Notes: generated from the letters alone by a model not told the origin. A DNA stretch of 64,000 nt from an uncultured Micavibrio sp. (GCA_964534445.1 CAZHOE010000001.1:550493-614492); one strand, 5' to 3'; shown: positions 16,772 to 51,594, numbered from the stretch's first letter. A program made the numbers and translations.

Positions 16772-18010
16772 ATGGCTCTTCCGAACAAAGCCCTTGTTGA
16801 CCTGTTCTCCAACCTCACAACCGAGGAGGAAGTCTCCGCCGCGCTGAAAACGCCGGACGGTCAGGCATGGCTCACGAAGCCGCTCTCGAAAGACACGCCC
16901 GATAATGGACTGACTTACATGATCGACGGCTATTTCAAAGATAGCTGGAAGAACCGTCACAAGGGATTTACTGCGGTTGCGCTCAAGGTTCTTGAAGAGA
17001 CCGTTCCCGATGCAGATACGCGCGTCGCCATACTCACCGCCGCCAACGAGCGCGGGCAGACGCCGATCCACAGGGCGCTCGCCTATGGCGGGTCGCGCGA
17101 AGCTTACGATCCGGTACTCGACGCTCTCTACAAATGGGCAGGAGAGGAAAAGGCGGACGCGATCATGAAAGACATACTTTCCCAGCCGCTCGGAAAAATA
17201 GACAGCGATATTTCCTACGCCTTCCAGAACATCCGGGAGATGCGCCAGCGCGGCACACCGGAATACGAGCAGATCGACGCGCTCACGACCGATTCATACC
17301 ATCCCGTGACTGCGGCAGGCCTGCGCGCTGCGCTAAAGGATGTCCGTCCTGCAATCGCGGAATGGCTGGCACAAGAGAAACCGGACAGCGATTACACCAA
17401 GCAACGGAAGGCGAAAATGCAGGCCTTCTACGACAATCCCGATCCCGTCTCCGAAAAAGGCTCTCTGCTGACCGAGCATTTCCCCGGCAAAGCATTTTTC
17501 CGCCTGCTCGAAATATATCTAAAGGGCGAGGCCGCAACACCGCAGCAGAAAGCAGACGGCATTTTCGCCCTGCTGTCGAAAGAAAACGCCGAGGGCAACA
17601 CCCCCATGCATATCGAATGGACAGTGTCCGACCTGCTCGGCACGCCTCAAAGCGCCGCCCCTTTCACCGACAAACTGTCGCCGATGCTGGCTGCCTTTGA
17701 CCGCATACTCGGCACCCAGATCGCCATCGACCTTTCTGTCAAACTACTGTTGCAGGAAAATGCCAAGGGCCAGTTGCCGCTCGACATCATGCAGTACCCG
17801 AAACTCCCCGTGCGTGACTTTGCTCTTGATAAAATGATGCAGACACTGCGCGCAGAAATGGGCAGCAAGGAGAAATTCACGACATACGTGAAAGAAGTGA
17901 TTGCACCTGTCCTGCCGGCAGACTACAAAATCAACCTCGCCGCCTTTGAACCGGAGCAAGCTAAAGCCGCAGGATCCAAGCCCCAGCGGGGCGCGAAGGT
18001 GGAATTCTGA
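16772..18010 (+). CDS. Hypothetical protein (412 aa) with degenerate ankyrin-like repeats
   Basis: Three spaced motifs resemble the ankyrin core (xxxGxTPLH): ANERGQTPIHRALAYG, ENAEGNTPMHI and ENAKGQLPLDI. No signal peptide or TM segment. Confidence 0.5.
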   Translation: MALPNKALVDLFSNLTTEEEVSAALKTPDGQAWLTKPLSKDTPDNGLTYMIDGYFKDSWKNRHKGFTAVALKVLEETVPDADTRVAILTAANERGQTPIHRALAYGGSREAYDPVLDALYKWAGEEKADAIMKDILSQPLGKIDSDISYAFQNIREMRQRGTPEYEQIDALTTDSYHPVTAAGLRAALKDVRPAIAEWLAQEKPDSDYTKQRKAKMQAFYDNPDPVSEKGSLLTEHFPGKAFFRLLEIYLKGEAATPQQKADGIFALLSKENAEGNTPMHIEWTVSDLLGTPQSAAPFTDKLSPMLAAFDRILGTQIAIDLSVKLLLQENAKGQLPLDIMQYPKLPVRDFALDKMMQTLRAEMGSKEKFTTYVKEVIAPVLPADYKINLAAFEPEQAKAAGSKPQRGAKVEF

Positions 18011-18043
18011 CTGCCCTGCTCTGCAGGTAAGACAGGTTGCTCA

Positions 18044-18245
18044 TCACCTGAACAAGATCAGTGGCACGTGGCAAGCTTTAATCAAGCTTGTGGTGGTACT
18101 GCCCAACAGCATGCCGCGCATGACAGAGTGCCTATATGATCCCGTTAAAAGAAGGTCGTTGGTTCACATCAAAACCTGCAGCTTTCAATTCGGACACAGT
18201 CTCGTTTGCGTCAAGGGGCTGCTTTGCGGGCATTCTCTTTACCAT
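18044..18245 (-). pseudogene. Remnant of a universal stress protein (UspA family) gene, N-terminally truncated and frameshifted
   Basis: One minus-strand frame reads ...DLLLTGSYRHSVMRGMLLGSTTTSLIKACHVPLILFR*. This matches the Usp C-terminal pattern (aDLiVvGs.g.....lLGSv...v...a.cPVLvv). The upstream part (...SELKAAGFDVNQRPSFNGII*) is in another frame, with a stop at 18132-18134. Confidence 0.4.
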
Positions 18246-18350
18246 CGTAAGCGATTAAAAAGCGCTTGATCGGTCGCATAAATATATCATTTGGTAGATT
18301 TCTGATAGAACCACTATTTATTCCGGCTATGGCAATCCTTGTATTTAAGG

Positions 18351-18932
18351 CTAAGCTGTTACCCGCTCTTTTGCCGCGCGCTGTAGCAGCGTCGCGATAT
18401 CTTCAAGCGCCGCAACGTAATCGGGCTGGCTCGCGTTGAGCGCGGCCTGCGGCATATAAGGGGATTCAGCGGTTGCCGGATCTTGCACGATTGTAAGGCC
18501 GCCTTCGGCTTTTATGGCTTTCAGCCCCGCGCTGCCGTCAGCACTGGCACCCGTGAGGATAACGCCGATGATCTGCCCGCCAAGACTGTCCACAGCGCTT
18601 TCAAACAAGACGTCGATGGAAGGGCAGGAAAAATTGACGCGCGGATCTACAGACAGGCTGAAGGTTTTGTCCGGTTCCACCAGCAAATGATAATTAGGCG
18701 GTGCAAGGTAGATGCAGCCCGGTCGCATGGCTTCCTTGTCCTCAACTTCCTTCAAGGCAAGCGTGCAGTCTTGCCCCAAGTATTCGGCCATGTATGAATC
18801 CGAATGGCTGGCCATGTGCTGGACAATAGCGACGGGCAGGGGAAAATCAGCCGGCAGTGCACCCAGAATTGTCTTGAGCGCCCTCATGCCGCCGGCGGAA
18901 GCGCCGATGACAACGACTTCATACATGCGCAT
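18351..18932 (-). CDS. cheB: CheB-type protein-glutamate methylesterase, catalytic domain only (no receiver domain)
   Basis: 193 aa: VVVIGASAGGMRAL (Ser nucleophile region), IVQHM, GVILTGASADG. It starts directly with the esterase domain. Confidence 0.85.
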   Translation of the reverse strand: MRMYEVVVIGASAGGMRALKTILGALPADFPLPVAIVQHMASHSDSYMAEYLGQDCTLALKEVEDKEAMRPGCIYLAPPNYHLLVEPDKTFSLSVDPRVNFSCPSIDVLFESAVDSLGGQIIGVILTGASADGSAGLKAIKAEGGLTIVQDPATAESPYMPQAALNASQPDYVAALEDIATLLQRAAKERVTA

Positions 18933-19761
18933 TCTCGCTATGTTTCTTGAAAATGCGTTGCTTGGTATCCACCGTCTCGAACATCGGATGGACGGATGAA
19001 AAATTCAGGCTTTCCTTGCTGCCGAGACACAGAAAACCCCCGTGCCGCAAGCTGTCCGTAAAAAGACGCAGGGCGCGGTCTTGCAACGTCTTGTCAAAGT
19101 AGATCATCACGTTCCGGCAACAGATCAGGTTCATTTCGCCGAAAACCCCGTCTGTTACGAGATTGTGGTAGGAAAACGTGACCTTTTCCTTGAGGAAGTC
19201 CTTGATTTTAGCGCGGTCATAACCGGCGCTGTAATACTCGGCAAAATCGCGCTTGCCGCCGGAGGCCTTGTAGTTTTCCGCATAGGTCTGGATATTCTCC
19301 AAAGGATAAACAGCGTTTTGTGCAGCATCCAGCGCGTGCTTATTGAAATCGGTCGCGTAGATGCGGACTCGATCGAGGAAGTTTTCTTCGTGCAGTAGGA
19401 TCGCCATGGAGTAAACCTCCTCCCCCGTCGCACAGCCCGCGTGCCAAATCTTGACGAAAGGAAAGGTTTTGAGCATCGGTACAACTTGCTCCCGAACAGC
19501 CTTGTAGAACATCGGATCGCGGAACATCTCCGTCACCGTGATCGACATGTGTTTGAGCACCTGATCAAAAAACGCCTCATCGTGGAATAGCCGGTCAAGC
19601 ATCTCGGTATACCGGACGATTTTTGCCTGATCACACACACTGGCAAGGCGGCGCTTAAGAGACGAATGGGAATAATTGGCAAAATCGTAGCCATAACGGC
19701 GACGAATACCGTCGAGAAGTATTTCCATCTCCAGTTTGTCTAGATCCCTACCCGTGTTCAC
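18919..19761 (-). CDS. cheR: CheR-type protein-glutamate O-methyltransferase
   Basis: 280 aa: ITVTEMFRDP, VKIWHAGCATGEEVYS, IFCRNVMIYFD-like LICCRNVMIYFD. Its start overlaps the kinase stop (19758-19761) and its stop overlaps the cheB start (18919-18932). Confidence 0.85.
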   Translation of the reverse strand: MNTGRDLDKLEMEILLDGIRRRYGYDFANYSHSSLKRRLASVCDQAKIVRYTEMLDRLFHDEAFFDQVLKHMSITVTEMFRDPMFYKAVREQVVPMLKTFPFVKIWHAGCATGEEVYSMAILLHEENFLDRVRIYATDFNKHALDAAQNAVYPLENIQTYAENYKASGGKRDFAEYYSAGYDRAKIKDFLKEKVTFSYHNLVTDGVFGEMNLICCRNVMIYFDKTLQDRALRLFTDSLRHGGFLCLGSKESLNFSSVHPMFETVDTKQRIFKKHSENAHV

Positions 19762-22700
19762 AAAGTCTCATCCTGTTTGAACAACCAGACGCGCATCAGT
19801 GTCAACATACGTTCCATATCGACAGGCTTTGTCAGATAATCATTCGCGCCTGCTTCCATGCATTTTTCCTGCTCTTCGGGCATGGCGCGGGCCGTAAGCG
19901 CAATCATCGGCAATTTGCGCCATTTCTTGTCGGCACGGATGGCACGCATTGCCTCGTAGCCATCCATAACGGGCATCATGATATCCATGATAACAAGTTC
20001 AACCCCTTCGTTTTGGTCGAGCTTTTCAAGCGCCATCTTGCCGTTATCCGCAATCACGACATTCATTCCATGCTTTTTCAACATTTTTGACAGGGCAAAG
20101 GTATTGCGCAGGTCGTCATCCACCAACAAAACAGTGCGATCCAGCAGTACTTTATCGGGGTTATGCTGCATGCGGATAATCGCCTGCTGATCCTTGGATA
20201 GCGTTGATTCTACACTGTGCAGAAACAGCGTCACTTCGTCCAGCAGGCGGTCGGAGGAATGCGCGCCCTTGATAACAATACTGCCTGTGTACTGGCTGAG
20301 CTTGCGGTTCTCTTCCTCCGTCAATTCCTTGGCGGTATAGATGATCACAGGTGGCAAGTTGCCACTATCTACTTTTTCAGCCACGGCATTCAGCCATTCA
20401 AAGCCGGTCATGTCGGGCAGCAGCAGGTCGAGGATGATACAATCGAAAAGCTCTTCGGATACACGCGCAAGCGCTGTCGCGCCCGTACCGATACATGTGA
20501 TTTCGAGATCCTTTTTTCGCAAAAGCTTCTGGATTGCCGCCTGACTTTTTCTGTCGTCCTCAATAACCAGGATCTTTTTGGCGGAAGCGTCGAGAATGTC
20601 TTCGATCTTACCAAGCGCGCTATCAATGACCTCCACTTCGACGGGCTTGCTCATAATGCCGATAGCACCCTTGCGCAGCGGCTGGATTTCATCGATGTCG
20701 GTAAAACCTGTGATGATATGGACGGGAATATGGCGTGTTCTGAGGTCATGTTTAAGCTGGTCCAGAACATTCAGCCCGTCAATGTCGGGTAACCGCAGGT
20801 CAAGGATCACAGCACTGACCGGTTGTTCTGTCGCAAGCAGAATACCCGTCTTGCCGTCCCCTGCCACGAGGCACTTGAAACCGCGCTTTTGTGCCGTCTT
20901 CATCAGCACATAGGCAAAGTCCCGGTCATCCTCGATGATCAGGAGTGTCTTGTCCTTTTTGTCGATGTCGTCACGGTCATCGGCAATAAACGGTTTGACG
21001 GGCGTTTTCGGCATCGGTTTTATTTCAGTCCGCGCCGGTTCCGCCTTGCGCAGCGGCGCTATAAGCGCAGAGCTATCCTCTACGCCGGACGCTTTTTCCG
21101 CTTCTTCCTGTTTCCAATGCTCTGGCAGGATTAGCGAGAAGGTACTCCCCTGACCTTTCTTGCTGCTTACATGGATTTCACCGCCCATAATGTGGGCAAA
21201 CTTGCGCGCAATCGTCAGGCCAAGTCCCGTACCACCGTAATGACGGTCGGTCGAGCCATCTTCTTGCTGGAATGCCTCGAAGATGCTGTTCAGCTTGGCT
21301 TCATCAATGCCGATGCCCGTATCGGTCACGGAGAATGCGATGGCATTAGCAGGCGCGAGCAAGGTACGCTTAAGATTTACCGTTGTATCGGGGCGGGCGA
21401 TGCGTAGCGTCACAGAGCCGCGCTCTGTAAATTTGAAGGCGTTGGACAAAAGGTTCTTGATAATCTGCTCCACGCGCTGCGAATCCGTATGGATAAGCGC
21501 AGGAGCACCCTCTTCAATTTTGACACTTAAGGCCACGTTATTTTCTGCAGCGACGGGGCTGAACTGCTGCTCCATCCGGCGGGCAATATCCTTGGGGGCG
21601 ACGTCATCCGTGATAATGCTTATCTTTCCGGCCTCTACTTTCGAGAGATCAAGAATATCGTTGATGAGATCCAGCAGCTCGATACCGCCGTTGTATATGA
21701 TGTTAGATTCCTCAACCTGCTCCTCTGTCAAATTGCCCTCTTCGTTAGAAGCGAGATTCTTGGCCAAGATCAGCAGGCTGTTCAAAGGTGTGCGTAACTC
21801 ATGCGACATATTGGCGAGAAATTCTGATTTGTATTTACCGGACAACTCCAATTCCCGTGCTTTTTCCTCAAGCGCCTTCCGGCTCTCTTCCAGATGAGCT
21901 GTTTGCTCGCGAATACGCGTGTTTTGCTCCTCCAGCTCCTCGTTGGAAACTTCCAGCTCTTCTTGCTGCTGTTCAAGGCGCGCCTGTGATTCTTTCAATG
22001 CATTACTTTGTTCTTCCAGCTCCTCGTTGGAAACGCGCAATTCCTCGCTTTGCGTCTGGAGCTCTTCGGCCTGCGCCTGCGTTTCCTCCAAAAGCTTTTG
22101 AAGGTGGCTTCTGTAATTCGCAGACTGGACCGCGACACCGATGGCTTTGGATGCATGGTCCAGAAAACTGACGGCTCTGTCGTTAAGCTTTTGAATGAAT
22201 CCCAGTTCGAAAACCGCATGGATAGAGCCATCCGCAAAGGCCGGCGAAATGACCAGCTGGCGCGGCTTTGCTTGCCCAAGACCGGAGCCGACGCGGATGT
22301 ATCCGTCGGGCACGTCTTCGACGATGAAGGCACGCGCATCCTTGATCGCCTGCCCCAGCAGGTTGTCGTGATTGTGAACAACACTCTCTTGTGCTTCATC
22401 TACAGGAAATCCGTAGGTTGCCACGCGCCTGTATTCGCTTTCGCCCCTTGCAAAGAAAATACCCACATGCGCGTTGAGGTATTCGGCCAGAAACTTCAGG
22501 ACAGCTTCACCGAGTTCCGGCAACGTCAGGTCGCCAAGCATCGCCGAGGCCAGGCCGACCTGCCCGGATTGAAACCATTCCTCCTGCCGCCGCTGCGCTG
22601 CCGCCCTGCGCAACAAGGTGGTAATGGCCATCGCCAAAAGGATACCGAAGGCACAGCTGATAACGACCGTCATGATCGCATTTTGAAATGAACGCACAGC

Positions 22701-23255
22701 TTCTTCCGACAAGCGCTGACGGAGCTCGCGCTCGGTTTGTAGCATATCCGCTGTAACAGCGCGCAGGCGGTCCATGATTTCCTTGCCCTCGCCGGCCGTA
22801 ATCCGCGCCTTTGCTTCCTCGAAGCCTTTTTCACGTCTCAGGTCAATAACGTTTCCCAGAATTTCGATTCGTGCCTTGGTCAGATTTCGCAAGGTGGAGA
22901 TACGTTCTTGCTGCAAGGGATTGTCGCGCGTGAGCTTCTGAAGCCTGTCTATCTGCGTTTCCACTTGCGGTAACGCCAGCGTATACGGCTCGAGAAAAGT
23001 TGCATCCCCGCTCAGAACGTATCCTCGTTGTCCCGTTTCGGCATCTTTCATCAAAGACAGGATCGTATTGCACATCGTCAATACGTCATGGGTATGGCTA
23101 ACTGAATCGCCATTATTCCGAAGCGCAAGAAGGCTATTATACGTAATGTATCCGCTGGCAAAGAAGAAGATAACGACTGCCGTAAGCCCAGCCAGAAAGG
23201 GGAATTCGCGCACTTTATTCGTATTCTTTTGCGCAGGCCTTGCGTTGGTTGTCAT
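19758..23255 (-). CDS. Hybrid sensor histidine kinase: TM-CHASE3-TM-GAF-(Glu-rich coiled coil)-HisKA-HATPase-REC-REC-REC
   Basis: 1165 aa. The CHASE3 pattern is SVSHTHDVL...KDAETGQRGYVLSGDATFLEPY. There is a second TM helix and a GAF-like segment. The coiled coil reads QAEELQTQSEELRVSNEELEEQ...EELEVSNEELEEQ. The H-box is [10 protein letters not shown], followed by the N/G boxes. The three receivers carry ILDLRLPDIDG, ILDLLLPDMTG and IMDIMMPVMDG. Confidence 0.9.
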   Translation of the reverse strand: MTTNARPAQKNTNKVREFPFLAGLTAVVIFFFASGYITYNSLLALRNNGDSVSHTHDVLTMCNTILSLMKDAETGQRGYVLSGDATFLEPYTLALPQVETQIDRLQKLTRDNPLQQERISTLRNLTKARIEILGNVIDLRREKGFEEAKARITAGEGKEIMDRLRAVTADMLQTERELRQRLSEEAVRSFQNAIMTVVISCAFGILLAMAITTLLRRAAAQRRQEEWFQSGQVGLASAMLGDLTLPELGEAVLKFLAEYLNAHVGIFFARGESEYRRVATYGFPVDEAQESVVHNHDNLLGQAIKDARAFIVEDVPDGYIRVGSGLGQAKPRQLVISPAFADGSIHAVFELGFIQKLNDRAVSFLDHASKAIGVAVQSANYRSHLQKLLEETQAQAEELQTQSEELRVSNEELEEQSNALKESQARLEQQQEELEVSNEELEEQNTRIREQTAHLEESRKALEEKARELELSGKYKSEFLANMSHELRTPLNSLLILAKNLASNEEGNLTEEQVEESNIIYNGGIELLDLINDILDLSKVEAGKISIITDDVAPKDIARRMEQQFSPVAAENNVALSVKIEEGAPALIHTDSQRVEQIIKNLLSNAFKFTERGSVTLRIARPDTTVNLKRTLLAPANAIAFSVTDTGIGIDEAKLNSIFEAFQQEDGSTDRHYGGTGLGLTIARKFAHIMGGEIHVSSKKGQGSTFSLILPEHWKQEEAEKASGVEDSSALIAPLRKAEPARTEIKPMPKTPVKPFIADDRDDIDKKDKTLLIIEDDRDFAYVLMKTAQKRGFKCLVAGDGKTGILLATEQPVSAVILDLRLPDIDGLNVLDQLKHDLRTRHIPVHIITGFTDIDEIQPLRKGAIGIMSKPVEVEVIDSALGKIEDILDASAKKILVIEDDRKSQAAIQKLLRKKDLEITCIGTGATALARVSEELFDCIILDLLLPDMTGFEWLNAVAEKVDSGNLPPVIIYTAKELTEEENRKLSQYTGSIVIKGAHSSDRLLDEVTLFLHSVESTLSKDQQAIIRMQHNPDKVLLDRTVLLVDDDLRNTFALSKMLKKHGMNVVIADNGKMALEKLDQNEGVELVIMDIMMPVMDGYEAMRAIRADKKWRKLPMIALTARAMPEEQEKCMEAGANDYLTKPVDMERMLTLMRVWLFKQDETL
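21931..22034 (-). repeat. In-frame 84-nt tandem-type duplication inside the kinase coiled coil
   Basis: The exact 20-mer TCCAGCTCCTCGTTGGAAAC occurs at 21931-21950 and at 22015-22034. The spacing of 84 nt equals 28 codons, or four heptads. Each copy encodes VSNEELE(E). Confidence 0.8.
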
Positions 23256-23284
23256 GTCTTTTATCTCCCGTGCGATAAGCAGCG

Positions 23285-24439
23285 CTATTTAGGCCATGTA
23301 AAGATGAATGCCGCGCCCTTGCCTGGCTCGGATTCAACCCTTATCTTGCCGCCATATGTCATCAGGACCTTCTTTACGATCGCCAATCCCATACCGCTGC
23401 CCTCGACTTGGTCGCGGGGCCGCAATGTCTGGTACATCTCAAATATCCTGTCGTGGAATTCCGGTGCGATACCGGGGCCATCGTCCCGGATCGTGAAAGT
23501 GTAGTGGTCGCTCATTTCCTCAACGTCCATGTCTATCCGCCCCGTCGCGCCGCCGTGGTGCTTCAGCGCGTTATCCAGCAGATTGTGGATAATCTGTTGC
23601 AGCGGCAAGCGGGCGACTTTGATGGTATCAAACCTCTTGCCAATTTCCACCGTGAACTTTGGAACAGGTGCAAGAAGACCGACGATATCTTCCGCCAGTT
23701 CCTTGCCGCTGATGATTTCACCGCGGTTAAAGTTCTCTTTGTCGTTGATACGGGCGTATGCGAGCGTATCGTCCAGAAGCTTTTCCATGCGCATGACATT
23801 CTTGCGGATTCCACCCATATATTTCTGGCCGCCCTCGTCCAGCGCACCGCTCAAATCATCTTCCAGCCATTGCGACATCTTGTAGATGGCCCGCAGGGGC
23901 GTCTTGAGGTCGTGTGCGCAGATATATGCAAATCGTTCGAGCTCCTCATTGGATTGCATCAGCGTGGCGTTGAGCTTCATGATATACTCGCGCTGCATGT
24001 ATAGGTCGAGATACACACTGACCTTGCTGCGCAGAATATCCGTATTAATCGGTTTGAAAATATAATCGACGGCGCCGATTTCCGCCGCGCGCGTGGCGTA
24101 TTTTTCTTCTTTGCTGATCGCCGTGACAAAGATGATCGGGGTACCGCGCATGGAATCGTCTTCCTGCATCAAGGAGGCTGTTTCAAACCCATCCATTTCG
24201 GGCATCTGAACATCGAGAATGACCACGGCGAATTTATGCCGCAGCATAAGCGAAAGAGCCTCGTTGCCGGAATTAGCCATATAGATGTTCGCAGGGAGAT
24301 ACCGGAGAATTTTTTCGGTCACGAAGAGGTTTTCTTTCCTGTCATCAACGATCAGGATGTTCGGCAATTCTTCCGGTGGCGCGACCTTGAAAGAGCCGTT
24401 AGCCTCTTTTGTCCGTTTTTCAGAGGAGCCGGGAGACAT
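23285..24439 (-). CDS. Receiver-histidine kinase fusion (REC-HisKA-HATPase)
   Basis: 384 aa: ILIVDDRKEN...VILDVQMPEMDG...KP receiver, a linker helix, the H-box CAHDLKTPLRAI (phytochrome-type), and the HATPase boxes NALKH, DDGPGI and GSGMGL. Confidence 0.85.
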   Translation of the reverse strand: MSPGSSEKRTKEANGSFKVAPPEELPNILIVDDRKENLFVTEKILRYLPANIYMANSGNEALSLMLRHKFAVVILDVQMPEMDGFETASLMQEDDSMRGTPIIFVTAISKEEKYATRAAEIGAVDYIFKPINTDILRSKVSVYLDLYMQREYIMKLNATLMQSNEELERFAYICAHDLKTPLRAIYKMSQWLEDDLSGALDEGGQKYMGGIRKNVMRMEKLLDDTLAYARINDKENFNRGEIISGKELAEDIVGLLAPVPKFTVEIGKRFDTIKVARLPLQQIIHNLLDNALKHHGGATGRIDMDVEEMSDHYTFTIRDDGPGIAPEFHDRIFEMYQTLRPRDQVEGSGMGLAIVKKVLMTYGGKIRVESEPGKGAAFIFTWPK

Positions 24440-24739
24440 CTGCGTTTCCTTGATTTATTTATGCCCTTCCGTTTCCCGGCGAACGAAAGTTGCCGAGGAT
24501 GTATGTATGATGTTCTGAAACAACTTTTGACGCAATTGATATTTTAGTGTTTTGCGCCGTAGTAATATCGAAAGGCCAAAGCCTAAATTCTGTATACCTT
24601 TTTTTGTAACGGGTGTTCTACTTCGAATTTTTGCAAGAAGCGTGAATAATTAACTATATTTCAAAGATGGAAGTAGTAGAATTTCAGATATGTTCGTATT
24701 GCTGCACTGCCATACAGATATCCAGAGGCGCGACACATT

Positions 24740-26437
24740 ATGATGTGTAAAGAAGATGAAATGACGGATCCTGAACAGACGCTCAAACATAAAACGTCCA
24801 GCCCGATCCTGATTGTCGAAGATAATGAGAACGACATTGAAGCGGCGCGGCGTGCTTTTAGCAAAACAAAAATCCCTCACGGTATCAGTCACGCATGGAC
24901 AGCCGAAGAGGCCATAGATTATCTGCTTGATCCCGGTAACGCCGTTCCCAGCCTCATTCTTCTCGACCTTAATCTACCGGGCATGGGCGGACGTAAAGCG
25001 CTCGAACTGATCAGAAAAGACAAGAGTCTGACGCAAATCCCGATCATCGTCCTGACAACATCCGATCACGACAAGGATGTCGAGATGTGTTACGCCCTTG
25101 GGGCGAGCTCTTATATTAAAAAGCCGGTCGACTTCGATGCCCTCTGTCAAGCCGTGCGCAACTTAGTCGAATACTGGCTAGGTACCAGCCTTCTGCCTCC
25201 CCTACGCGAACAGCAAGAGCGTATCAAAGCACTTGAAGAGGCCAAACGCGCGGCGGAACTGGCTAACCAGGCGAAAAGCGACTTCATCGCGGTCATGTCG
25301 CACGAATTACGTACGCCGTTGAATTCCATACTCGGCATGTTGCGCCTCGTTCTAGAAGAAACGTCGACGATGTCGTCGCAGCGCGAAATGCTCGATGTTG
25401 CCTACGAGTCTGCAGAGGGGCTGCTCGCCACGGTGAATGACATTCTGGACATATCCAAAATCGAGGCCGGCTGTCTCGAGCTAGAACGGATTCCGCTCAG
25501 CTTCGAAAACACCCTACAAAGCGTTGCGGACAGCATGAGGCCGCTTTACCTTGGAAAAGGCCTGTTGTTCGAGTGTAATTTTCCCAGCACGGGCATTCCG
25601 CATTTGCTGGGGGACCCTATGCGTCTCAGACGCATAATGGTCAACCTTATCGGCAACGCCGTAAAATACACGGAAAAGGGTTCGATCACACTGGACATCG
25701 AGACTACGCAGCATACAGGTGATGCGCTGACGCTCACAATGAGTGTCACAGACACCGGGATCGGCATCCCGGCAGAAAAGATGGAGTACATCTTTGAGAA
25801 ATACACACAAAGCGACAGCTCCATCACGCGGCGCTTTGGCGGCACGGGGCTTGGCCTCAATATCACCAAGGAAATTGTCCAAATGATGGGCGGTACGGTG
25901 GGCGTCGAAAGTACGCTGGGCGAGGGATCACGTTTCTGGTTCAGCATTCCCTTCTACACGACAGAGGATGATCTGCCCGCCGAAAATCATGCCCTGCACA
26001 GCCGGTCGGCAGAAGGCCCCCTTGCCGCCACGCGCAAGCACGCGGCCGATATGAAGCTTCTGCTCACAGAGGATGATGCCCTGAATATCGCCTTTATGAA
26101 GAAGCTGCTCCCGCGCATGGGTTTCACGGACTTCGATATCGCCAAGACGGGGCAAGAAGCGCTCGATGCCGTCGTTAAAGGAGATTACGACATTATTCTC
26201 ATGGACTGCCACATGCCGATCATGAGCGGATATGACGCCACACAGAAAATTCGCCTGCGCGAAAAAGAAAACGATAGCCCGATCGTCCCTATCATTGCCA
26301 TGACGGCCGATGCCATGGAAGAAACGCGTGTGAAGTGTCTGCAAGCCGGAATGAACGAGTACGTCAGCAAACCCATAGATATGGATTCTCTGCGCGACGT
26401 TTTAAGCCAGTGGATCGTTTTCCCCGAGGATCATTAG
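24740..26437 (+). CDS. Hybrid histidine kinase REC-HisKA-HATPase-REC
   Basis: 565 aa. The N-terminal receiver ([12 protein letters not shown]) ends in [11 protein letters not shown]. The H-box is [10 protein letters not shown], with the HATPase boxes following. The C-terminal receiver carries [12 protein letters not shown]. Confidence 0.85.
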
Positions 26438-28703: not shown

Positions 28704-29246
28704 GTGAAGTATGTTTCGAAAATATGTTCAAACACTGCCTTTTTGCTGTGTTGCATACTTGCATTGCAAATGTCTGTATCACGGGCCGTATACGCGGATG
28801 TGGCCCTTAAAGACGTTCAGACGCTGATAAGAACAATCGGCTTTTTAGAAAACCGCGCTACCGGTCAGGTCGTCATGGCGATCGTTTATGATCCTGATAG
28901 CAGCGCCTCGCTTCAGGAAGCCGAGCAGATGCAACAGCAGCTTATCAAGAGCAAAAGCGATCTATCTCCACGCATGGTGCCCGTTACCGATCTGGGGCAA
29001 CTAAAAAATGCGCAATACGCTTTTGTGACCGACGGGTTAGAAAAACATTACAGACGTATTGATACGTTTTTTCGCGCAAATAAAATCCTGAGCTTCACCC
29101 TGCAGCGCGGTTGCATCGAGAATAATTGTTGCGCTGTCTATATCAATGCAAAAAACAGAGTTGAAATTATTGTTAATAAAAGCGTGACCGATGCGGTGCA
29201 GGCAAGCTTTAAACCCGTTTTCCTAATGATGATTACAGTGATATGA
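28704..29246 (+). CDS. Periplasmic YfiR-like (DUF4154) protein
   Basis: 180 aa with a GTG start and the signal peptide ...ALQMSVSRAVYA. The size and pattern (IRTIGFLE...VVMAIVYDP..., ILSFT..., C-terminal ...VEIIVN...) fit my recollection of DUF4154. Its stop overlaps the kinase start (ATGA, 29243-29246). Confidence 0.5.
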   Translation: MKYVSKICSNTAFLLCCILALQMSVSRAVYADVALKDVQTLIRTIGFLENRATGQVVMAIVYDPDSSASLQEAEQMQQQLIKSKSDLSPRMVPVTDLGQLKNAQYAFVTDGLEKHYRRIDTFFRANKILSFTLQRGCIENNCCAVYINAKNRVEIIVNKSVTDAVQASFKPVFLMMITVI

Positions 29247-31537
29247 GAAAACCAATTTTTAAACTCGGCATAAAAACCAAAATATTTTTACCCCTTTTTC
29301 TGCTTATGGCTGGTGTCGGGCTATATTTTTATCTAGTCTGGGTGCCAAAATCCGTTTCTTTTTCCGTGGGGGAATCCCTGAAACTACTGCATCATACGCT
29401 GGAGATTGTCGAAATCCAGATTACGCAGGATATCGCAAAAGGAGACTTGGATACGGTACGCCAAAACCTAGATTTGTTATTGTTAAAAAACCCGTCGTGG
29501 CAGCGGCTTGTTTTGAAAGATGCAAACGGCGTCATCCTCTATCCTGAAGGAGAGGAGATCCTGCCATCCACCCGGCAAGATCTCAAAGCCGTTTCCCTGC
29601 AGATGGCAACCTACGGAAAAAATATTGGCAGCCTCACTCTGGAATACGACTTTTCCGAGACCTCAAAAGAAATTCGTCGTGATGCTTTGCGTTTATTTGC
29701 CTTTCTGATCGGCGCTTTGTTTCTCTTTATTGCCACGGCCACAATTATTATTCAGCTCTTTGTCATCAAACCCGCACGGTTGCTGGCCAAAGCTGCGGAG
29801 CATTTCACAAGTGGTGACACCGCAGGAGAAAATGATATCCATCATCTACCTCCCGTCACAAGCGACGAGATCGGCACACTGACCCAAAGCTTTACTGCCA
29901 TGCGGAAAGCAATTGCACTGCAACGGCTCAACCTGGTAAGCCAGAACAAGGAGCTGGAAGCGGCCAGGGATCTGGCCGAAAGATCCAACCGCGCCAAAAG
30001 CGAATTTCTGGCCAATATGTCGCACGAACTGCGTACCCCGCTGAACAGTATCATGGGCCTATCCCGCATGATATCCGAAGAACCGTCAACAGACCAAGAC
30101 ACCGCCCACATGGCCACCACAGTCAATAAAGCGGCTATCACGTTGCTGGACATTGTGAATGACATTTTGGATATCTCCAAAATCGAAGCGGGCGGCATGG
30201 TGCTGGAAAAAATCGGATTTGATATAAAGGAAATCATATCCAGCATTGTTGAAACAATGGCACCGATCGCGAGCGGCAAAGGCGTTTCACTTAAATACCA
30301 TTATGAGACGGAGGATATTCCATTCGTACTCGGCGACCCCCTCCGTTTCAGCCGGATTGTAACCAATCTTGTCAGCAACGCGATTAAATACACCGAAACA
30401 GGCGAGGTCAACATATCGGTTGCCGCAGACCCGATCGAGGGAACGGACAACAGCCAAATCGAATTCTATTGCACGGTAGAAGATACCGGTATCGGCATTC
30501 CGCAAGATAAACTGCATTCCATTTTCGACAAGTTCACACAGGTGGACGAGACGATCACGCGCAGATTCGGCGGTACCGGCCTTGGTCTGGCGATTACGCA
30601 GGACCTCGTCAAAATGATGCACGGCACTATCGGCATCGACAGCGTGGTCGGGCAAGGATCCCTCGCCTGGTTCAAAATTCCCTTTATCGTTACAGATGAG
30701 ATCGACAAAGATATGCGCCGTGGACGCCGCGCCCAAAGACAGAAAGTCGTGTCGGCTGACCATCTGATACCCGCGGAACAGGCTCGCTTGCTTGTGGCTG
30801 AAGATCATCAGCTCAATCAAGATTTTATTAAACGACTGTTAAAGCGCATGGATCTGCAAAACTACCTGATTGTCGAAACGGGCGCCGATGCCGTAGACAA
30901 ATGGCGAGATGGCAATTTTAGCCTGATCCTGATGGACTGCCATATGCCGGAAAAGAATGGCTATGAAGCGACCCGTGATATCCGTGCCGCAGAAAGCGGG
31001 ACAGGCAAGCGTATTCCGATCATTGCGCTAACGGCAGATGCCATGAAAGGAACACAAGAAAAGTGTATCGATGCAGGCATGGACGAATATATCACAAAGC
31101 CTATTGACGCCGATGACCTGCGCGATGCCCTTTCGCAATGGATACTGTTTCCGGACACGACGGTATCTGCGCCGGCACAGCCGCAGGGTATCGTTGAGCC
31201 CGTCGACACCCCCGCAGATCTATCCTTGCTGTCAGATTACGCAGAGACACCTGAGGAAATGGAACAATTCTTACAAACTTTTACCACTGTCAGCACCGAA
31301 TGCCTGGAACTCCTGACCGCGCACTGTATCGATGGCATTTGCACACCTTGGGTAGAAGCTGCGCATAAATTCAAAGGGGGCGCCGGTATTGTCGGCGCGA
31401 AAAAACTACAGGCACTCTGCGCACAGGCGCAAGATATGGAAGAAGCCTCTATCAAGGACAGAGAGAATATCCTGAAAAAAATAAAAAATGAATACGACAT
31501 TGTAAAAAAATATTGCGAGCAAGAAATCGCAAACTAA
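29243..31537 (+). CDS. Hybrid sensor histidine kinase: TM-periplasmic loop-TM-HAMP-HisKA-HATPase-REC-HPt
   Basis: 764 aa with two TM helices flanking a loop of about 130 aa. The HAMP segment reads SDEIGTLTQSFTAM and the H-box is [10 protein letters not shown]. The receiver carries [12 protein letters not shown]. The C-terminal HPt domain contains AAHKFKGGAGIVGAKKL. Confidence 0.85.
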   Translation: MRKPIFKLGIKTKIFLPLFLLMAGVGLYFYLVWVPKSVSFSVGESLKLLHHTLEIVEIQITQDIAKGDLDTVRQNLDLLLLKNPSWQRLVLKDANGVILYPEGEEILPSTRQDLKAVSLQMATYGKNIGSLTLEYDFSETSKEIRRDALRLFAFLIGALFLFIATATIIIQLFVIKPARLLAKAAEHFTSGDTAGENDIHHLPPVTSDEIGTLTQSFTAMRKAIALQRLNLVSQNKELEAARDLAERSNRAKSEFLANMSHELRTPLNSIMGLSRMISEEPSTDQDTAHMATTVNKAAITLLDIVNDILDISKIEAGGMVLEKIGFDIKEIISSIVETMAPIASGKGVSLKYHYETEDIPFVLGDPLRFSRIVTNLVSNAIKYTETGEVNISVAADPIEGTDNSQIEFYCTVEDTGIGIPQDKLHSIFDKFTQVDETITRRFGGTGLGLAITQDLVKMMHGTIGIDSVVGQGSLAWFKIPFIVTDEIDKDMRRGRRAQRQKVVSADHLIPAEQARLLVAEDHQLNQDFIKRLLKRMDLQNYLIVETGADAVDKWRDGNFSLILMDCHMPEKNGYEATRDIRAAESGTGKRIPIIALTADAMKGTQEKCIDAGMDEYITKPIDADDLRDALSQWILFPDTTVSAPAQPQGIVEPVDTPADLSLLSDYAETPEEMEQFLQTFTTVSTECLELLTAHCIDGICTPWVEAAHKFKGGAGIVGAKKLQALCAQAQDMEEASIKDRENILKKIKNEYDIVKKYCEQEIAN

Positions 31538-31965: not shown

Positions 31966-32394
31966 TTAAATCGGCAGAAGTGCCGTTTCAAGCCAATAAT
32001 CACCAATACATCTGATCGTTTGGGTCAAGCCTTCGTAATCTAGCGGTTTTTGGATATAAGAATTGGCGCCTGCCTGATAGCAGGCTTTAACATCGCGCTC
32101 GCTGGCAGAGGTCGTGAGGATGATAACGGGGATGTGTTGCAAACCGGCATCTTGCTTGATGTGTTGCAGAATTTTGCGGCCATCAAGACCCGGCATATTA
32201 AGATCGAGAAAGATCAATACCGGTAACGCGCCTGATTTTCCTTCTTCCAAATAGGCCAGTGCCTGCTGGCCTGTACGACACCAGATAATAGGATATTTCA
32301 AGCCTACTTTCTGGCTGGCGCGTAGGATGGCTTCGTAATCATCTTCACTGTCTTCTACCAGAAGGATAGATTTTATATAGAGGGGCTCAGTCAT
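31966..32394 (-). CDS. Single-domain response regulator (Rcp1/CheY-like)
   Basis: 142 aa: LLVEDSEDD, IFLDLNMPGLDG, ILTTS, QKP, with the C-terminal tail DYWLETALLPI. Its start overlaps the upstream kinase stop. Confidence 0.85.
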   Translation of the reverse strand: MTEPLYIKSILLVEDSEDDYEAILRASQKVGLKYPIIWCRTGQQALAYLEEGKSGALPVLIFLDLNMPGLDGRKILQHIKQDAGLQHIPVIILTTSASERDVKACYQAGANSYIQKPLDYEGLTQTIRCIGDYWLETALLPI

Positions 32395-34706
32395 AGAATG
32401 TTTTTCTCCAGCGTAAAGTAAAAAGTCGCTCCCTGATCAAGTGCGGATTCCACCCAGATCTCGCCTCCATGTCGCTCGACGATTTTCTTGACGAATGTCA
32501 GGCCGGCGCCTGTCCCTTCTTCTTGTTCTCCCGTGGTGCTTTGCAGACGCCGGAAGATGCGGAATATTTCTTCGTGGAATTGAGGATCGATGCCTCGACC
32601 ATTATCCTTCACGTAGAAAACATTCCGCCGCTGTTTCCCGTTCACCTTGACATGGTTATCAAGAAATCCGATCTCGACCGTTTTTTCCTTCGTCTCCGTG
32701 TATTTTACCGCGTTGGTGATCAGATTGCGAAAGACTTCGGCAACACGCGGCTTGTCACAGCGGATCGTCGGCAGAGGGCCTGCAACGATAATCCTGGCAT
32801 TGTTCTCTTTCAGGAAAACGTCAATGGTGCTTTCAATGTCGCGGACCACGTCATTTATATCGGTAAGCTGTACAGCAAGCGCCTGGCGCCCCAGCCTTGA
32901 AAAATACAATAAATCATTGACGAGTTTTTCCATGCGTTGACTGAGATAAATAAGACGGTGCAGACGGTTCGTACTTTCCTGATCAAGTTTGCCTTCGTTG
33001 TCTTCCATCAGGAAACGCGCATGATTGTGGATACCGCGTAGCGGTTCCTTTAGATCGTGGGAGGCTATATGAGCAAAATCGTCTAGTTCTCTATTGCTGC
33101 GCTCGAGATCCTGTGTGTAGCGCATAATGGATTCTTCTGCCTTTTTTCGATCCGTGATGTCGCGAATGATACCGGAGAAATATTGTTTCCCCTCTACCTG
33201 AAAAGCACTGATCGACAAATCCATCGGGAAGATGCTGCCATCCTTTCTCTTTGCCAGGAGCTCCCGTCCGGCTGTACCGATAATTTTACCTTCCTTGGTT
33301 TCCGTATAGCGTGCGATGTAGCCATCATGCTGACTGTGGTATGGTTCAGGCATTAATATTTTTATGTTCTTTCCACGCACTTCTTCCGCCTTATATCCAA
33401 AAATGCGTTCGCAGGCAGGATTGAAGGTATGGATAAACCCGTGGGCGTTGATGGTGATAATACCATCCACCGTATGCTCGACCACCGCTCTTAGCTTTGC
33501 TTCGCTCGCCTGTAATCTGGACTCCGCCTGCTTGCGCTCCGTGATGTCCCGGACAAAAGCCGTAAATTGGTAATCGCGGTTCAGCTTCTGGGCGGAAATG
33601 CTCAGTTCGATAGGAATGGTTTCCTGACGGTTGTTGAGTCCTTCCACTTCGATGCGTCTATTCAGTAGCGGCCCCGTGCCACTGGTCAGGAAACGCTGCA
33701 TGCCTTGCCTGTGCGCTTCCCGGTAAGCTGGAGGAATAATGAGGTCCGCCAGCTCGTTTCCCATCGCGTCCTGTCGCGACCAACCGAAGATCTGTTCTGC
33801 CTGTTTGTTCCATTCAGTCACATTGCCTTGCGAATCCATTGAGATGATTGCATCCAGTGCGCCCTCGATAATTGTGCGCAGTTTGTTCTCGCTCATAAAC
33901 AGCGCCTTCTCCGCTTGGGCTCTTCTATAAGCGCCCAGCGACAAGGCGAGGCCAAGAATGATTGCCGTGAAGGCTGCCACGGCGATTGCCAGCATGTTGA
34001 AATCCTGCTGCTGGTCATAGCGGCAGTCTGCATACGGCATAAACACGGCAGCGAACATACCTGTATAATGCATGCCGCAAATCGCCGCCCCCATGATAAG
34101 AGCGGCGGCGATCTGATACAGGCTCCGGTATTTTCTATCGCTGCGGGCAAACTTGAACGCCATCCATATCGCAGCGGCAGAGGCGATAATCGCGATCCCT
34201 ACGGAAAGCAGGAAAATATCTGGTAAGTAGCGTAGATCGGCATCCATTTGCATCGCCGCCATACCTGTGTAATGCATGCCGCAAATGCCAAACCCCATCA
34301 CCACGGCCGCAACTAGCAAGGGGCGAAGGGACAGGTTCTTGCGGGCGGCGATCGACAGCGCAATGTAGGCTACGGAAATGGCAATCAGTAAGGAAAGGAC
34401 CGTCAACGACGGATCATAGGTAATCACCATACGCATTTTATAGGACAGCATACCGATAAAATGCATGGACCAGATACCGGCCCCCATCGCGAAAGCGCCG
34501 CCCCAGTGCAAAAGACGGCGTTCCTGCGCCGAAGTGGCAACGGACAGTTGCTGTGTCAAAGACAATGCCGTATAGGCAGCAAAACTGGCTACAATGTAGG
34601 AAAGCACCACGAGCGAGGGCTGATATGTCCCTGTTTCGATGTTGGTAGGCAAGGCACTGGCGATAAAAAAGGATTCAAACAAGGAAAGACCTATTCCCTT
34701 CCGCAT
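32391..34706 (-). CDS. MHYT-domain sensor histidine kinase (MHYT x3 - PAS - PAS - HisKA - HATPase)
   Basis: 771 aa. The N-terminal membrane region carries WSMHFIGM, CGMHYTGM and CGMHYTGM in alternate helices. Two PAS-like segments follow. The H-box is ASHDLKEPLRGI, then the HATPase boxes. Confidence 0.85.
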   Translation of the reverse strand: MRKGIGLSLFESFFIASALPTNIETGTYQPSLVVLSYIVASFAAYTALSLTQQLSVATSAQERRLLHWGGAFAMGAGIWSMHFIGMLSYKMRMVITYDPSLTVLSLLIAISVAYIALSIAARKNLSLRPLLVAAVVMGFGICGMHYTGMAAMQMDADLRYLPDIFLLSVGIAIIASAAAIWMAFKFARSDRKYRSLYQIAAALIMGAAICGMHYTGMFAAVFMPYADCRYDQQQDFNMLAIAVAAFTAIILGLALSLGAYRRAQAEKALFMSENKLRTIIEGALDAIISMDSQGNVTEWNKQAEQIFGWSRQDAMGNELADLIIPPAYREAHRQGMQRFLTSGTGPLLNRRIEVEGLNNRQETIPIELSISAQKLNRDYQFTAFVRDITERKQAESRLQASEAKLRAVVEHTVDGIITINAHGFIHTFNPACERIFGYKAEEVRGKNIKILMPEPYHSQHDGYIARYTETKEGKIIGTAGRELLAKRKDGSIFPMDLSISAFQVEGKQYFSGIIRDITDRKKAEESIMRYTQDLERSNRELDDFAHIASHDLKEPLRGIHNHARFLMEDNEGKLDQESTNRLHRLIYLSQRMEKLVNDLLYFSRLGRQALAVQLTDINDVVRDIESTIDVFLKENNARIIVAGPLPTIRCDKPRVAEVFRNLITNAVKYTETKEKTVEIGFLDNHVKVNGKQRRNVFYVKDNGRGIDPQFHEEIFRIFRRLQSTTGEQEEGTGAGLTFVKKIVERHGGEIWVESALDQGATFYFTLEKNIL

Positions 34707-34887: not shown

Positions 34888-36018
34888 ATGGCAGCATTGC
34901 AGCATATTTCATCTGAACGACCGTTAAAAATTTTAATTGTCGAAGACAACCCCGAAGATCGGGAGGCCTATCAGCGCATCTTAAAAAGAAGCTTTGCCGA
35001 CATTGAAATTCTGGAAGCGGAGAGCGTACGGCAGGGTCTTGCCCTATCGGCAACAAACGATCCTGATTGCATCTTGCTCGATTACCAGCTGCCGGATGGA
35101 AATGGCATTGATTTCATCAGAATATACCTTGATACCACGTCCCCACGCGCCGCTATCATTATGGTGACGGGACAGGGCAGCGAAATGACAGCTGCCGAAG
35201 TCATGAAACTGGGCGCGTTGGACTACATCACTAAAAGCAGCATCATGGAAGGCTATTTTGTACAAAACGTCATGAACGCGATTGAAAGGGCTCACCTGAA
35301 GGAAATGGTGGAGAAGTACCAGCAAGAACTCGCGCTTTCGAATAAATCACTTTCTGAATTCACACATACAGTATCACATGATCTAAAAGCGCCGCTCCGC
35401 CATATTTCTTCCTATTGCGAGCTGTTGAATCAGGAATGTGCGGACAAACTTGGCCCTGATGGCAGGAAGTACGTTAGTAGGCTGATCGTCAATACTGCCC
35501 GGCTCCAGCGGCTCATCGACGACCTTCTGGCTTACTCCCTGACGTTGCATGCCGAGGCGAAAATGGCCCACGTCGACTGCGCAAAAATCCTGAGTGAAAT
35601 CACGGAAGATCTGGAAGAAGTGATCCGGGAAAATCAGGCAGTGATTACGGTTCAAAAGCTACCTACAATATGGGCTTGCCCTTTGCGTATTAAACAGGTT
35701 TTCCAAAACCTTATCGATAACTCCATCAAGTATCGCAGCGACCATCCTCCTCTCATTACAATTACATGCGAGGATCGCGGCTCAGATTATCTTTTTTCTG
35801 TTCGCGACAACGGTTGCGGCATAGAAGAAGAATATAGGCAAACGATTTTCGAAGCCTTTAAACGTCAGCACATGCAAGACGAAGTTGAGGGATCGGGCCT
35901 TGGCTTATCGATATGCCGGAAAGTAGTTGACATGCATAGCGGCAGAATATGGGTCGAACAAAATCCGGATGGCGGCTCTCTTTTCCGTTTCACGATTCCA
36001 AAACAGGCGCAGACGTAA
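34888..36018 (+). CDS. Receiver-histidine kinase fusion (REC-HisKA-HATPase)
   Basis: 376 aa: ILIVEDNPEDRE, ILLDYQLPDGNG, H-box VSHDLKAPLRHI, and the HATPase boxes NSIKY, DNGCGI and GSGLGL. Confidence 0.85.
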   Translation: MAALQHISSERPLKILIVEDNPEDREAYQRILKRSFADIEILEAESVRQGLALSATNDPDCILLDYQLPDGNGIDFIRIYLDTTSPRAAIIMVTGQGSEMTAAEVMKLGALDYITKSSIMEGYFVQNVMNAIERAHLKEMVEKYQQELALSNKSLSEFTHTVSHDLKAPLRHISSYCELLNQECADKLGPDGRKYVSRLIVNTARLQRLIDDLLAYSLTLHAEAKMAHVDCAKILSEITEDLEEVIRENQAVITVQKLPTIWACPLRIKQVFQNLIDNSIKYRSDHPPLITITCEDRGSDYLFSVRDNGCGIEEEYRQTIFEAFKRQHMQDEVEGSGLGLSICRKVVDMHSGRIWVEQNPDGGSLFRFTIPKQAQT

Positions 36019-36531: not shown

Positions 36532-36537
36532 AAGCGC

Positions 36538-36993: not shown

Positions 36994-37277
36994 GTATTCC
37001 CCTCAAAACAAGCATCTTCAAAAATTATAAAAATATATTAATCCATTAAAATTCAGCACAAACAGTTTTAAAAGAACTACTATCAATTTAATTATAATTT
37101 TATCATTTTGGGGTTAACAACGTCTAAATATCTACGCTTTAGGTTCCAAGACAATTTGTTATTAACGCCGTGTAAAACAAACTGGGATATTATTGATTTT
37201 ATAAGAATTTTTTTCTATCTCGCGAATTCTGCTATCTCCTTGCTTTTAATACAGAATGAATTCTGAAAGGAACCGCG

Positions 37278-44419: not shown

Positions 44420-44499
44420 GAGAACACTATTCCCCTCGATCAAATGTTCATTCTTCCAATACGTTAACCATTTCCTGTCCGCAAAACAATAGGGATGTG

Positions 44500-51585: not shown

Positions 51586-51594
51586 GGGTTGGCT

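Follow-up and report, generated by a model that had tools for sequence, protein, structure and literature searches.

A hybrid histidine kinase with an operon-encoded CheR/CheB pair in an uncultured Micavibrio: a probable member of the RsbK/RsbM-CfcA family of methylation-regulated two-component modules

Introduction

Two described bacterial systems place a CheR-type gene beside a sensory histidine kinase. In the sigma-B stress pathway of Bacillus cereus, RsbM methylates the kinase RsbK and inhibits the phosphotransfer from RsbK to RsbY, according to published work summarized in PMC10950880, which also cites a 2015 paper whose title, beginning "Methylatable signaling helix", places the RsbM methylation on the signalling helix of RsbK. 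The cfcA product of Pseudomonas putida KT2440, a CHASE3/GAF hybrid kinase bearing three receivers, is required for activating the diguanylate cyclase CfcR, and a chemotaxis role has been ruled out for the CheR/CheB-like pair (CfcB/CfcC) of the cfcABCDE cluster (PMC4951495). BmsA of P. alkylphenolica and the P. brassicacearum-type cluster are equivalents of the P. putida cfc cluster (PMC8175716). Here, we analyze a minus-strand cluster of four genes from an uncultured Micavibrio sp. (GCA_964534445.1, CAZHOE010000001.1:550493-614492), a stretch of 64,000 nucleotides hereafter called the window. The cluster encodes a receiver (REC)-kinase, a large hybrid histidine kinase with an acidic coiled coil, a CheR methyltransferase and a CheB methylesterase. 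An initial annotation of this DNA had proposed that the coil is the substrate of CheR and CheB, and had stated that it knew of no experimentally characterized example of such a split arrangement. The latter view does not hold: RsbK/RsbM of B. cereus is such an example, and the identical gene set is found in P. putida cfcABCDE. The window cluster is not a new kind of system. As argued below, it probably belongs, with a rearranged gene order, to the RsbK/RsbM-CfcA family, whose members are self-contained two-component modules under the control of methylation.

Results

Gene organization and catalytic motifs of the cluster

The open reading frame (ORF) calls reproduced all of the coordinates, the gene order and the spacing originally given for the four genes (Table 1). 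A gap of 29 bp (23256-23284) follows the REC-kinase gene, cheR overlaps the stop codon of the large-kinase gene by 4 bp (19758-19761), and cheR and cheB overlap by 14 bp (18919-18932). In an independent gene call, CheB starts two codons later and is 191 aa long. A promoter and terminator scan of 17900-24900 yielded counts at shuffle level and is therefore uninformative on the operon boundaries.

Profile-HMM searches against Pfam likewise returned the architectures proposed for the four proteins. CheB had been described as an esterase domain without a receiver, and CheB_methylest is indeed the only family that Pfam finds in it. CheB is also receiver-less in seven related clusters that have this gene. 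The Ser of the GxSxGG motif, the His of QHM and the Asp of DG in CheB align with the solved CheB structures 3SFT and 1CHD, while the S-adenosylmethionine-binding motifs of CheR are conserved in comparison with the CheR structures 5FTW and 1AF7. Judged by these intact motifs, both enzymes appear to be catalytically competent.

Relationship to RsbK/RsbM

The Bacillus locus used for comparison comprises rsbV-rsbW-sigB-rsbY, an 896-aa kinase with the architecture CHASE3-HAMP-GAF-coil-HisKA-HATPase-REC, and an adjacent CheR gene. The window kinase is 34% identical to this RsbK-type kinase over 664 aa (E 2e-118), covering the GAF, coil, kinase and REC regions, and the alignment contains a gap of exactly 14 residues, or two heptads, inside the coil. 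The window coil aligns with RsbK residues 431-460, with residues 397-413 of the window kinase facing RsbK 431-447. Receiver 3 shares 48% identity over 127 aa with the RsbK receiver, and the identity between the CheR of the window and the RsbM-type CheR adjoining the Bacillus rsbK-type gene amounts to 43.8%.

We take the methylated residues of RsbK to be E439 and E446, which were reportedly identified by Chen et al. in 2012, and the inhibitory receiver aspartate to be D827. The Bacillus sequence fits this assignment: positions 439 and 446 fall in neighbouring EEL heptads and in each case hold the second Glu, and position 827 is the phospho-accepting Asp of the receiver. These three residues align with E405, E412 and D1091 of the window kinase.

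RsbK and the window kinase thus share the CHASE3 and GAF sensors, an EEL-heptad signalling helix, a near-identical H-box, a C-terminal receiver and an adjacent CheR-type gene. On the other hand, the window kinase has three receivers where RsbK has one, it lacks the HAMP domain of RsbK, and the Bacillus locus lacks the CheB and the REC-kinase that are both present in the window. The outputs also differ. The Bacillus system acts on RsbY (REC-PP2C) and sigma-B, while the Pfam scan of 45 window ORFs detected neither a PP2C/SpoIIE domain nor sigma-B, RsbV or RsbW.

Relationship to the cfc cluster

The cfc cluster resembles the window cluster in that a CHASE3/GAF hybrid kinase with three receivers is followed by cheR and cheB. 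The homologue from Pseudomonas viridiflava is 40.8% identical to the window kinase over 849 aa, and the coil is present in it. The two arrangements appear to differ as follows; for this comparison, the contents of cfcD and cfcE (REC-kinase and single receiver) were taken from related clusters rather than from the P. putida paper. The REC-kinase gene lies upstream of the large-kinase gene in the window, and not downstream of cheB. No single-receiver gene is adjacent to the window cluster, the nearest being located at 31966-32394 and 36043-37733. Lastly, a CfcR-type REC-GGDEF-EAL partner is missing: Pfam found no GGDEF or EAL domain among the 45 window ORFs, and such a partner could be encoded outside the window.

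The window REC-kinase is 46-52% identical to the REC-kinases located downstream of cheB in six other clusters, as compared to 31% for its paralogue within the window. The window therefore contains the same gene set with one gene moved upstream, and the REC-kinase is, as far as these identities indicate, the orthologue of the REC-kinase in the CfcD position, shifted upstream of the large kinase. Groundwater-metagenome contigs, up to 2.64 Mb long, carry an identical large kinase, and its closest named relatives are alphaproteobacterial metagenome-assembled genomes.

The acidic coil is conserved and in register with the phospho-accepting histidine

The initial annotation had noted a Glu/Gln-rich coil between the GAF domain and the H-box of the large kinase, and both the heptad analysis and the conservation bear this out. 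The coil is composed of 11 unbroken heptads of the form x-E-E-L-x-x-x, starting with AEELQTQ, SEELRVS and NEELEEQ and ending with ARELELS, and a stretch of 82 residues contains 24 acidic and 10 basic residues. Pfam assigned no family to aa 385-475. At the DNA level, the window contains a single match to the pattern EEL-x4-EEL-x3-NEE, while 100 shuffles gave none.

A check of coil conservation in orthologues had also been suggested. The coil is retained in all of the best 120 kinase homologues and directly precedes the H-box in 118 of them. In the other two (P0087 and P0098), the GAF domain is still followed by the coil core AEELQRSEEELKTQQEELEASNEEMEE, with a PAS domain inserted before the DHp domain. 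The same 120 proteins fall into four sensor architectures, namely CHASE3-GAF, CHASE3 alone, dCache-HAMP-GAF, and dCache-HAMP-GAF with an extra PAS domain. In 36 aligned homologues with a mean column identity of 52%, E397, E398, E404 and E405, which occupy the solvent-facing heptad positions b and c, are invariant.

The first coil Glu and the phospho-accepting His were 53, 60, 67, 74, 81, 88 or 95 residues apart, a spacing that equalled 4 modulo 7 in all 135 kinases whose coil adjoins the DHp domain (135/135). Thus, the coil length varies only by whole heptads, as expected for a single continuous coiled coil in register with the DHp helix. In a monomeric AlphaFold2 model of aa 236-730 (mean predicted local distance difference test score 81), a confident helix continues from the GAF domain over aa 359-434 and, after a low-confidence break at aa 435-441, a second helix runs from aa 442 to 503 through the His. 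The model does not distinguish a hairpin from a straight helix; the modulo-7 rule favours a continuous helix.

The REC-kinase of the cluster contains a single "QSNEELERFAYICAHDLKTPL" at aa ~158-175, directly before its H-box. A chance match of the survey pattern described below (locus L084) arose from the same NEEL-x-F-x-Y-x-x-SHDL arrangement, indicating that a lone NEEL before an HDL-type H-box is a trait of that kinase subfamily and not a multi-heptad coil.

The same coil occurs in CheB-CheR-PAS-kinase fusion proteins

According to the initial annotation, an EEL/NEEL repeat follows the CheR domain in the CheB-CheR-PAS-kinase fusion proteins. The repeat is present, but a PAS domain intervenes between CheR and the coil. 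The fusions are arranged as receiver-less CheB, CheR_N, CheR, PAS, coil, PAS_10, PAS and a kinase of the HWE or HisKA type, and the coils of the Beijerinckia indica and Sinorhizobium meliloti fusions read ATNEELRAANEELQSINEEYRSTSEELETSKEELQSINEELQTVNNEL. In Streptomyces, Pseudonocardia and Anabaena, CheR-PAS-coil-PAS proteins occur without any kinase. The fusions share with the window the receiver-less CheB, the CheR and the same N-E-E-L-x-S/T-x heptad coil. They differ from it in being single polypeptides, in having the coil between two PAS domains and not directly on the DHp domain, and in their kinase core, which is often of the HWE type or absent. Since the coil occurs with an HWE core or with no kinase at all, it travels with CheB/CheR and not with the type of kinase, which argues that the coil is functionally tied to these enzymes.

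The classical CheR site consensus, known from chemoreceptors, is E-E-x-x-[AST]-[AST]. The fusion coils have the heptad consensus N-E-E-L-Q-S-T; 63% of their EE heptads match the CheR consensus, and in 97% one or both of the [AST] positions hold a small residue. Exact EELEAS or EELKAS sites are also present in the kinase-type coils of dCache and CHASE3-only proteins. This heptad profile speaks against the reading that the coil misfits the methylation consensus of the methyl-accepting chemotaxis proteins (MCPs): the E-E-x-x-A-S/T half-site is good in the fusion coils and partial in the window.

The window CheR belongs to an unusually conserved clade, with 67-89% identity across 120 matches. It is closer to the CheR domains of the fusions (distance 0.67-0.71) than to the CheRs of che clusters (0.77-0.83).

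Besides the fusion gene, which already holds a CheB domain, B. indica (L006:4175-5158) and S. meliloti (L007:4066-5127) have a second, stand-alone and receiver-less CheB of 327-353 aa, with a C-terminal extension, encoded divergently from the CheB-CheR-PAS-HWE kinase gene. Proteins of about 650-850 aa with the CheR-PAS-coil-PAS architecture and no CheB or kinase domain were found at L031, L044, L045, L046, L062, L067, L087, L092 and L094; their hosts are Streptomyces, Pseudonocardia, Umezawaea, Modestobacter, Anabaena, Nostoc and Cylindrospermum. The heptads of these proteins form highly regular coils (ELETTNEELQSTNEELETTNEELQSTNEEL).

Genomic coupling of the coil with CheR and CheB

To what extent the NEEL coil co-occurs with neighbouring cheR and cheB had been raised as a question for a neighbourhood survey. 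Look-ups starting from CheR gave the order coil-kinase, CheR, CheB, REC-kinase in four of four cases, usually followed by a single receiver. When started from the kinase, two of three gave coil-kinase, CheR, receiver-less CheB and REC-kinase.

In a coil-first survey, one genome per species was scanned for the coil DNA pattern, which retrieved at least 120 blocks, 119 of them with an in-frame coil. Each locus is a block with a fixed length of 8 kb in which the match need not lie at the centre, and the survey figures given here refer to the matches listed. The blocks originate from Bacteroidota, Cyanobacteria, Actinomycetota, Nitrospirota, Planctomycetota, Acidobacteriota, Desulfobacterota, Campylobacterota, Chloroflexota, Bacillota, many Proteobacteria and one methanogen. 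A CheR domain resides in the coil ORF itself at 81 of the 119 loci, with CheB also visible in 52, and CheR and/or CheB are encoded by a neighbouring ORF at another 12. The remaining 26 have neither within the block; about 14 of these are cut off by the fixed 8-kb limits and were set aside as uninformative. Among the kinase-type coils with enough flanking sequence, CheR is immediately downstream in 8 of 11. The association of the coil with CheR/CheB is therefore very strong, but not absolute: some kinases carry the coil without these genes.

Complete PAS-, REC- or GAF-containing kinases with a NEEL coil and no CheR/CheB in the 8-kb block were observed at L018, L020, L024, L035, L064, L085, L125, L086, L090 and L111, and include one from a Methanobacteriaceae archaeon. 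Such coils may be substrates in trans, or may have a function independent of methylation.

Absence of a chemotaxis core from the window

No MCP, CheA or CheW was found in the 64-kb window, either by Pfam on the 45 ORFs, by phmmer in six frames or by tblastn, as the initial annotation had stated. The phmmer queries were genuine MCP, CheW and CheA sequences, and the tblastn queries were E. coli CheW and Tsr sequences. Nor was any MCP, CheW or CheA present in the approximately 135 related loci that we examined.

The cluster can be compared with canonical MCP adaptation. The two enzyme families are shared, their catalytic residues being intact in the window, and the proposed substrate in the window is, like that of the MCP pathway, a helical coiled coil with Glu pairs at sites seven residues apart; the classical MCP site, E-E-x-x-A-S/T, is matched by many coil heptads. 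Unlike the canonical chemosensory pathway, the window has no MCP signalling domain, CheA or CheW, its CheB lacks the receiver for phospho-feedback, and the helix continues within one chain into a HisKA kinase, which constitutes the output.

Surroundings of the cluster

The features of the cluster and its surroundings are listed in Table 1. A divergent hybrid kinase gene shares a 300-bp intergenic region with the REC-kinase gene; it is not conserved beside the cluster in the other genomes examined. Close by, the segment 29243-37733 is a dense two-component island, including four single receivers between 29 and 38 kb, and its members could be phosphorelay partners of the large kinase. On the opposite side, a 412-aa ORF convergent with cheB belongs to no Pfam family; on the metagenome contig L001, this ORF is likewise called as a gene, again without a family. 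Four further ORFs had no Pfam match at E<=0.001; the 580-aa one overlaps the start of a phosphoenolpyruvate mutase-like gene on the opposite strand and may not be a real gene. A zeta-toxin/AAA-like gene and a small HNH endonuclease gene, situated among housekeeping genes, may be remnants of mobile or toxin-antitoxin elements.

Table 1. Features of the four-gene cluster and its surroundings in the window (positions count from the first nucleotide of the window)
Feature	Position	Strand	Basis or remark
REC-HisKA-HATPase_c kinase, 384 aa	23285-24439	minus	ORF call and Pfam
CfcA/RsbK-type hybrid histidine kinase (large kinase), 1165 aa: CHASE3, GAF, acidic coil, HisKA, HATPase_c, three receivers	19758-23255	minus	Pfam and homology
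CheR-type protein-glutamate methyltransferase, RsbM/CfcB clade, 280 aa	18919-19761	minus	Pfam CheR_N and CheR
CheB methylesterase, catalytic domain only, 193 aa	18351-18932	minus	Pfam CheB_methylest at aa 7-182, nothing else
CHASE3 periplasmic sensor domain of large kinase, aa 50-184	22704-23108	minus	Pfam PF05227, E 1.3e-41
GAF domain (GAF_2) of large kinase, aa 243-377	22125-22529	minus	Pfam PF13185, E 4.6e-12
Acidic EEL-heptad coiled coil/signalling helix, proposed methyl-accepting segment, aa ~385-475	21831-22103	minus	Heptads and conservation
Candidate methylation sites, Glu pairs E404/E405 and E411/E412	22020-22046	minus	Aligned with RsbK E438/E439 and E445/E446
HisKA/DHp domain of large kinase, aa 476-543	21627-21830	minus	Pfam PF00512; phospho-accepting His is aa 485 in SHELRTP
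HATPase_c catalytic domain of large kinase, aa 591-712	21120-21485	minus	Pfam PF02518
Receiver 1 of large kinase, about aa 770-882	20610-20948	minus	Pfam Response_reg; boundaries from RsbK alignment
Receiver 2 of large kinase, about aa 894-1010	20226-20576	minus	Pfam Response_reg; boundaries from RsbK alignment
Receiver 3 of large kinase, aa 1042-1153, Asp1091	19797-20132	minus	Corresponds to the only receiver of RsbK, which is C-terminal
REC-HisKA-HATPase-REC hybrid kinase, 565 aa	24740-26437	plus	Divergent from the REC-kinase gene
HAMP-HisKA-HATPase-REC-Hpt protein	29243-31537		
Single REC	31966-32394		Overlaps MHYT-PAS-PAS kinase
MHYT-PAS-PAS kinase	32391-34706		
Second REC-kinase	34888-36018		31% identical to 23285-24439
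Three single-REC genes	36043-36531, 36538-36993, 37278-37733		
412-aa ORF	16772-18010	plus	Convergent with cheB; no Pfam family
440-aa ORF	51082-52404	plus	No Pfam match
580-aa ORF	54051-55793	plus	No Pfam match
298-aa ORF	4703-5599	minus	No Pfam match
216-aa ORF	43883-44533	minus	No Pfam match
Zeta-toxin/AAA-like protein	55806-56786	minus	
Small HNH endonuclease	41176-41739	minus	

Discussion

The present comparisons make it likely that the window cluster is an RsbK/RsbM-CfcA-type module operating by the following mechanism. The hybrid kinase would sense at the membrane through its periplasmic CHASE3 and its cytoplasmic GAF domains, and the signal would reach the DHp His via the long acidic coiled coil, which offers one Glu-Glu pair per heptad. 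The adjacent CheR may methylate the second Glu of some of these EE pairs, the best candidates being E405 and E412, and the receiver-less CheB would take the methyl groups off again. The resulting charge neutralization could alter the packing of the helix and, thereby, autophosphorylation or phosphotransfer to the appended receivers and to partner proteins. Methylation thus probably takes place in the window kinase as well; its reversal by CheB would allow the pair to provide adaptation or memory, and the appended receivers or the REC-kinase might, as the initial annotation proposed, supply the feedback for which this CheB has no receiver of its own.

The earlier proposal that the coil is the CheR/CheB substrate through which the kinase output is tuned is well supported. 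It draws on the homology with RsbK/RsbM, on the RsbM-dependent methylation summarized in PMC10950880, and on the fact that the coil and CheR/CheB travel together in two unrelated kinase contexts. The coil is likely to be the methyl acceptor because it is conserved, lies in heptad register with the His, and mostly occurs together with CheR/CheB.

Several observations nevertheless weigh against this interpretation. The kinase-type coils show the full CheR consensus in only 7-20% of their EE heptads, and the sites EELRVS and EELEVS of the window coil satisfy it only in part. In the coil profile, exchanges of E for Q at the Glu-pair positions are no commoner than those of E for D; there is therefore no deamidation signature. 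The RsbK residues from which the sites in the window were deduced are themselves presumed ones. As for the genomic coupling, the third kinase-first locus (L004, the context of P0018) has the kinase, CheR and REC-kinase without CheB, and the same holds for the coil-kinase, CheR and REC-kinase on plasmid 2 of Deinococcus deserti (L009). Since these loci lack CheB, as does Bacillus rsbK-rsbM, the esterase seems to be dispensable in some lineages. Moreover, neither CheR nor CheB was present in the 8-kb block of three of the 11 informative kinase-type loci (L086, L090 and L111), or of about seven complete multi-PAS kinases with the coil. Our literature search found nothing on the function of CfcB/CfcC or on the methylation of a CfcA-type protein accompanied by CheB. 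It also returned no paper on the CheB-CheR fusion kinases, which are annotated as "CheB/CheR fusion protein".

The substrate of CheR and CheB might instead be found elsewhere in the cluster, for example in the REC-kinase or in acidic residues of the receivers; the coil would then be an ordinary signalling helix inherited with the kinase core. Several receivers and a REC-kinase are always at hand in the cluster, and the co-inheritance of coil and kinase core within the CfcA family fits this idea and ours equally. There is also a precedent in Salmonella, where CheR is reported to methylate Glu/Asp residues of the response regulator PhoP (PMC8546571). As in the window, the modified protein belongs to a two-component system and is not an MCP; however, the enzyme there is a chemotaxis CheR acting in trans on receiver and DNA-binding residues, whereas the window has an operon-encoded pair and a kinase helix. 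We regard such another substrate as unlikely, given that the same coil accompanies CheB-CheR in fusions whose kinase core is of the unrelated HWE type and whose polypeptide lacks a receiver, and occurs in CheR-PAS-coil-PAS proteins that have no kinase. Furthermore, P0087 and P0098 keep the coil core despite the PAS domain between the coil and the DHp domain, the REC-kinase offers just one NEEL, immediately before the H-box, and the title cited in PMC10950880 places the RsbM methylation on the RsbK signalling helix.

The intact catalytic motifs of both enzymes would equally suit general chemotaxis adaptation enzymes that serve MCPs encoded elsewhere in the genome and are merely parked next to the kinase gene. 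This explanation appears very improbable. The pair is linked to the kinase gene by overlaps of 4 bp and 14 bp, a sign of translational coupling, the CheB has no receiver, and the CheR, more distant from the che-cluster enzymes than from the fusion-type ones, belongs to a clade that, in all contexts examined, lies beside a kinase with the coil and in none of them beside an MCP, CheA or CheW. In P. putida, the orthologues have been ruled out for chemotaxis (PMC4951495). The module is also found in Streptomyces, Flavobacteriia and Deinococcus, which are not known for flagellar chemotaxis. A docking or scaffolding function, by which the unmodified coil would recruit CheR/CheB or promote oligomerization, might account for the poor consensus fit of the kinase-type coil, and many MCPs possess a separate tether for CheR and CheB (PMC7390727 and PMC8609364). 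However, in the fusions, the enzymes are already covalently attached, which makes a docking site redundant, and yet it is in these very proteins that the coil reaches its greatest length and comes closest to the consensus; helix methylation of RsbK has been reported besides (PMC10950880). We therefore attach hardly any weight to the docking model.

Returning to the coil as the methyl acceptor, a broader proposal sees the NEEL heptad coil as a methyl-accepting module that is portable, differs from the signalling domain of MCPs and is used by dedicated receiver-less CheB/CheR enzymes to confer adaptation on two-component and PAS proteins in most bacterial phyla and some archaea. On the present evidence, the chances for and against this generalization seem to us evenly balanced. 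The module would exist in cis, as in the CheB-CheR-PAS-coil-PAS-kinase fusions, as a split operon in the form seen in the window, and possibly in trans on PAS-kinases without a nearby CheR. The CheB-containing split form of the window would then be the reversible version of a system that has been studied only for its methyltransferase half.

If true, reversible methylation of the helix would offer a two-component kinase a compact route to sensory adaptation without the chemotaxis machinery. The methyltransferase half of such a route has a precedent in B. cereus. The window does not introduce a new principle, and it provides a clean, small split system for biochemical study. Given that, in the present survey, the coil accompanies CheB/CheR in species from many phyla, including lineages without flagellar chemotaxis, many CheR/CheB genes annotated as "chemotaxis" may actually serve kinases, which matters for both genome annotation and counts of chemosensory systems.

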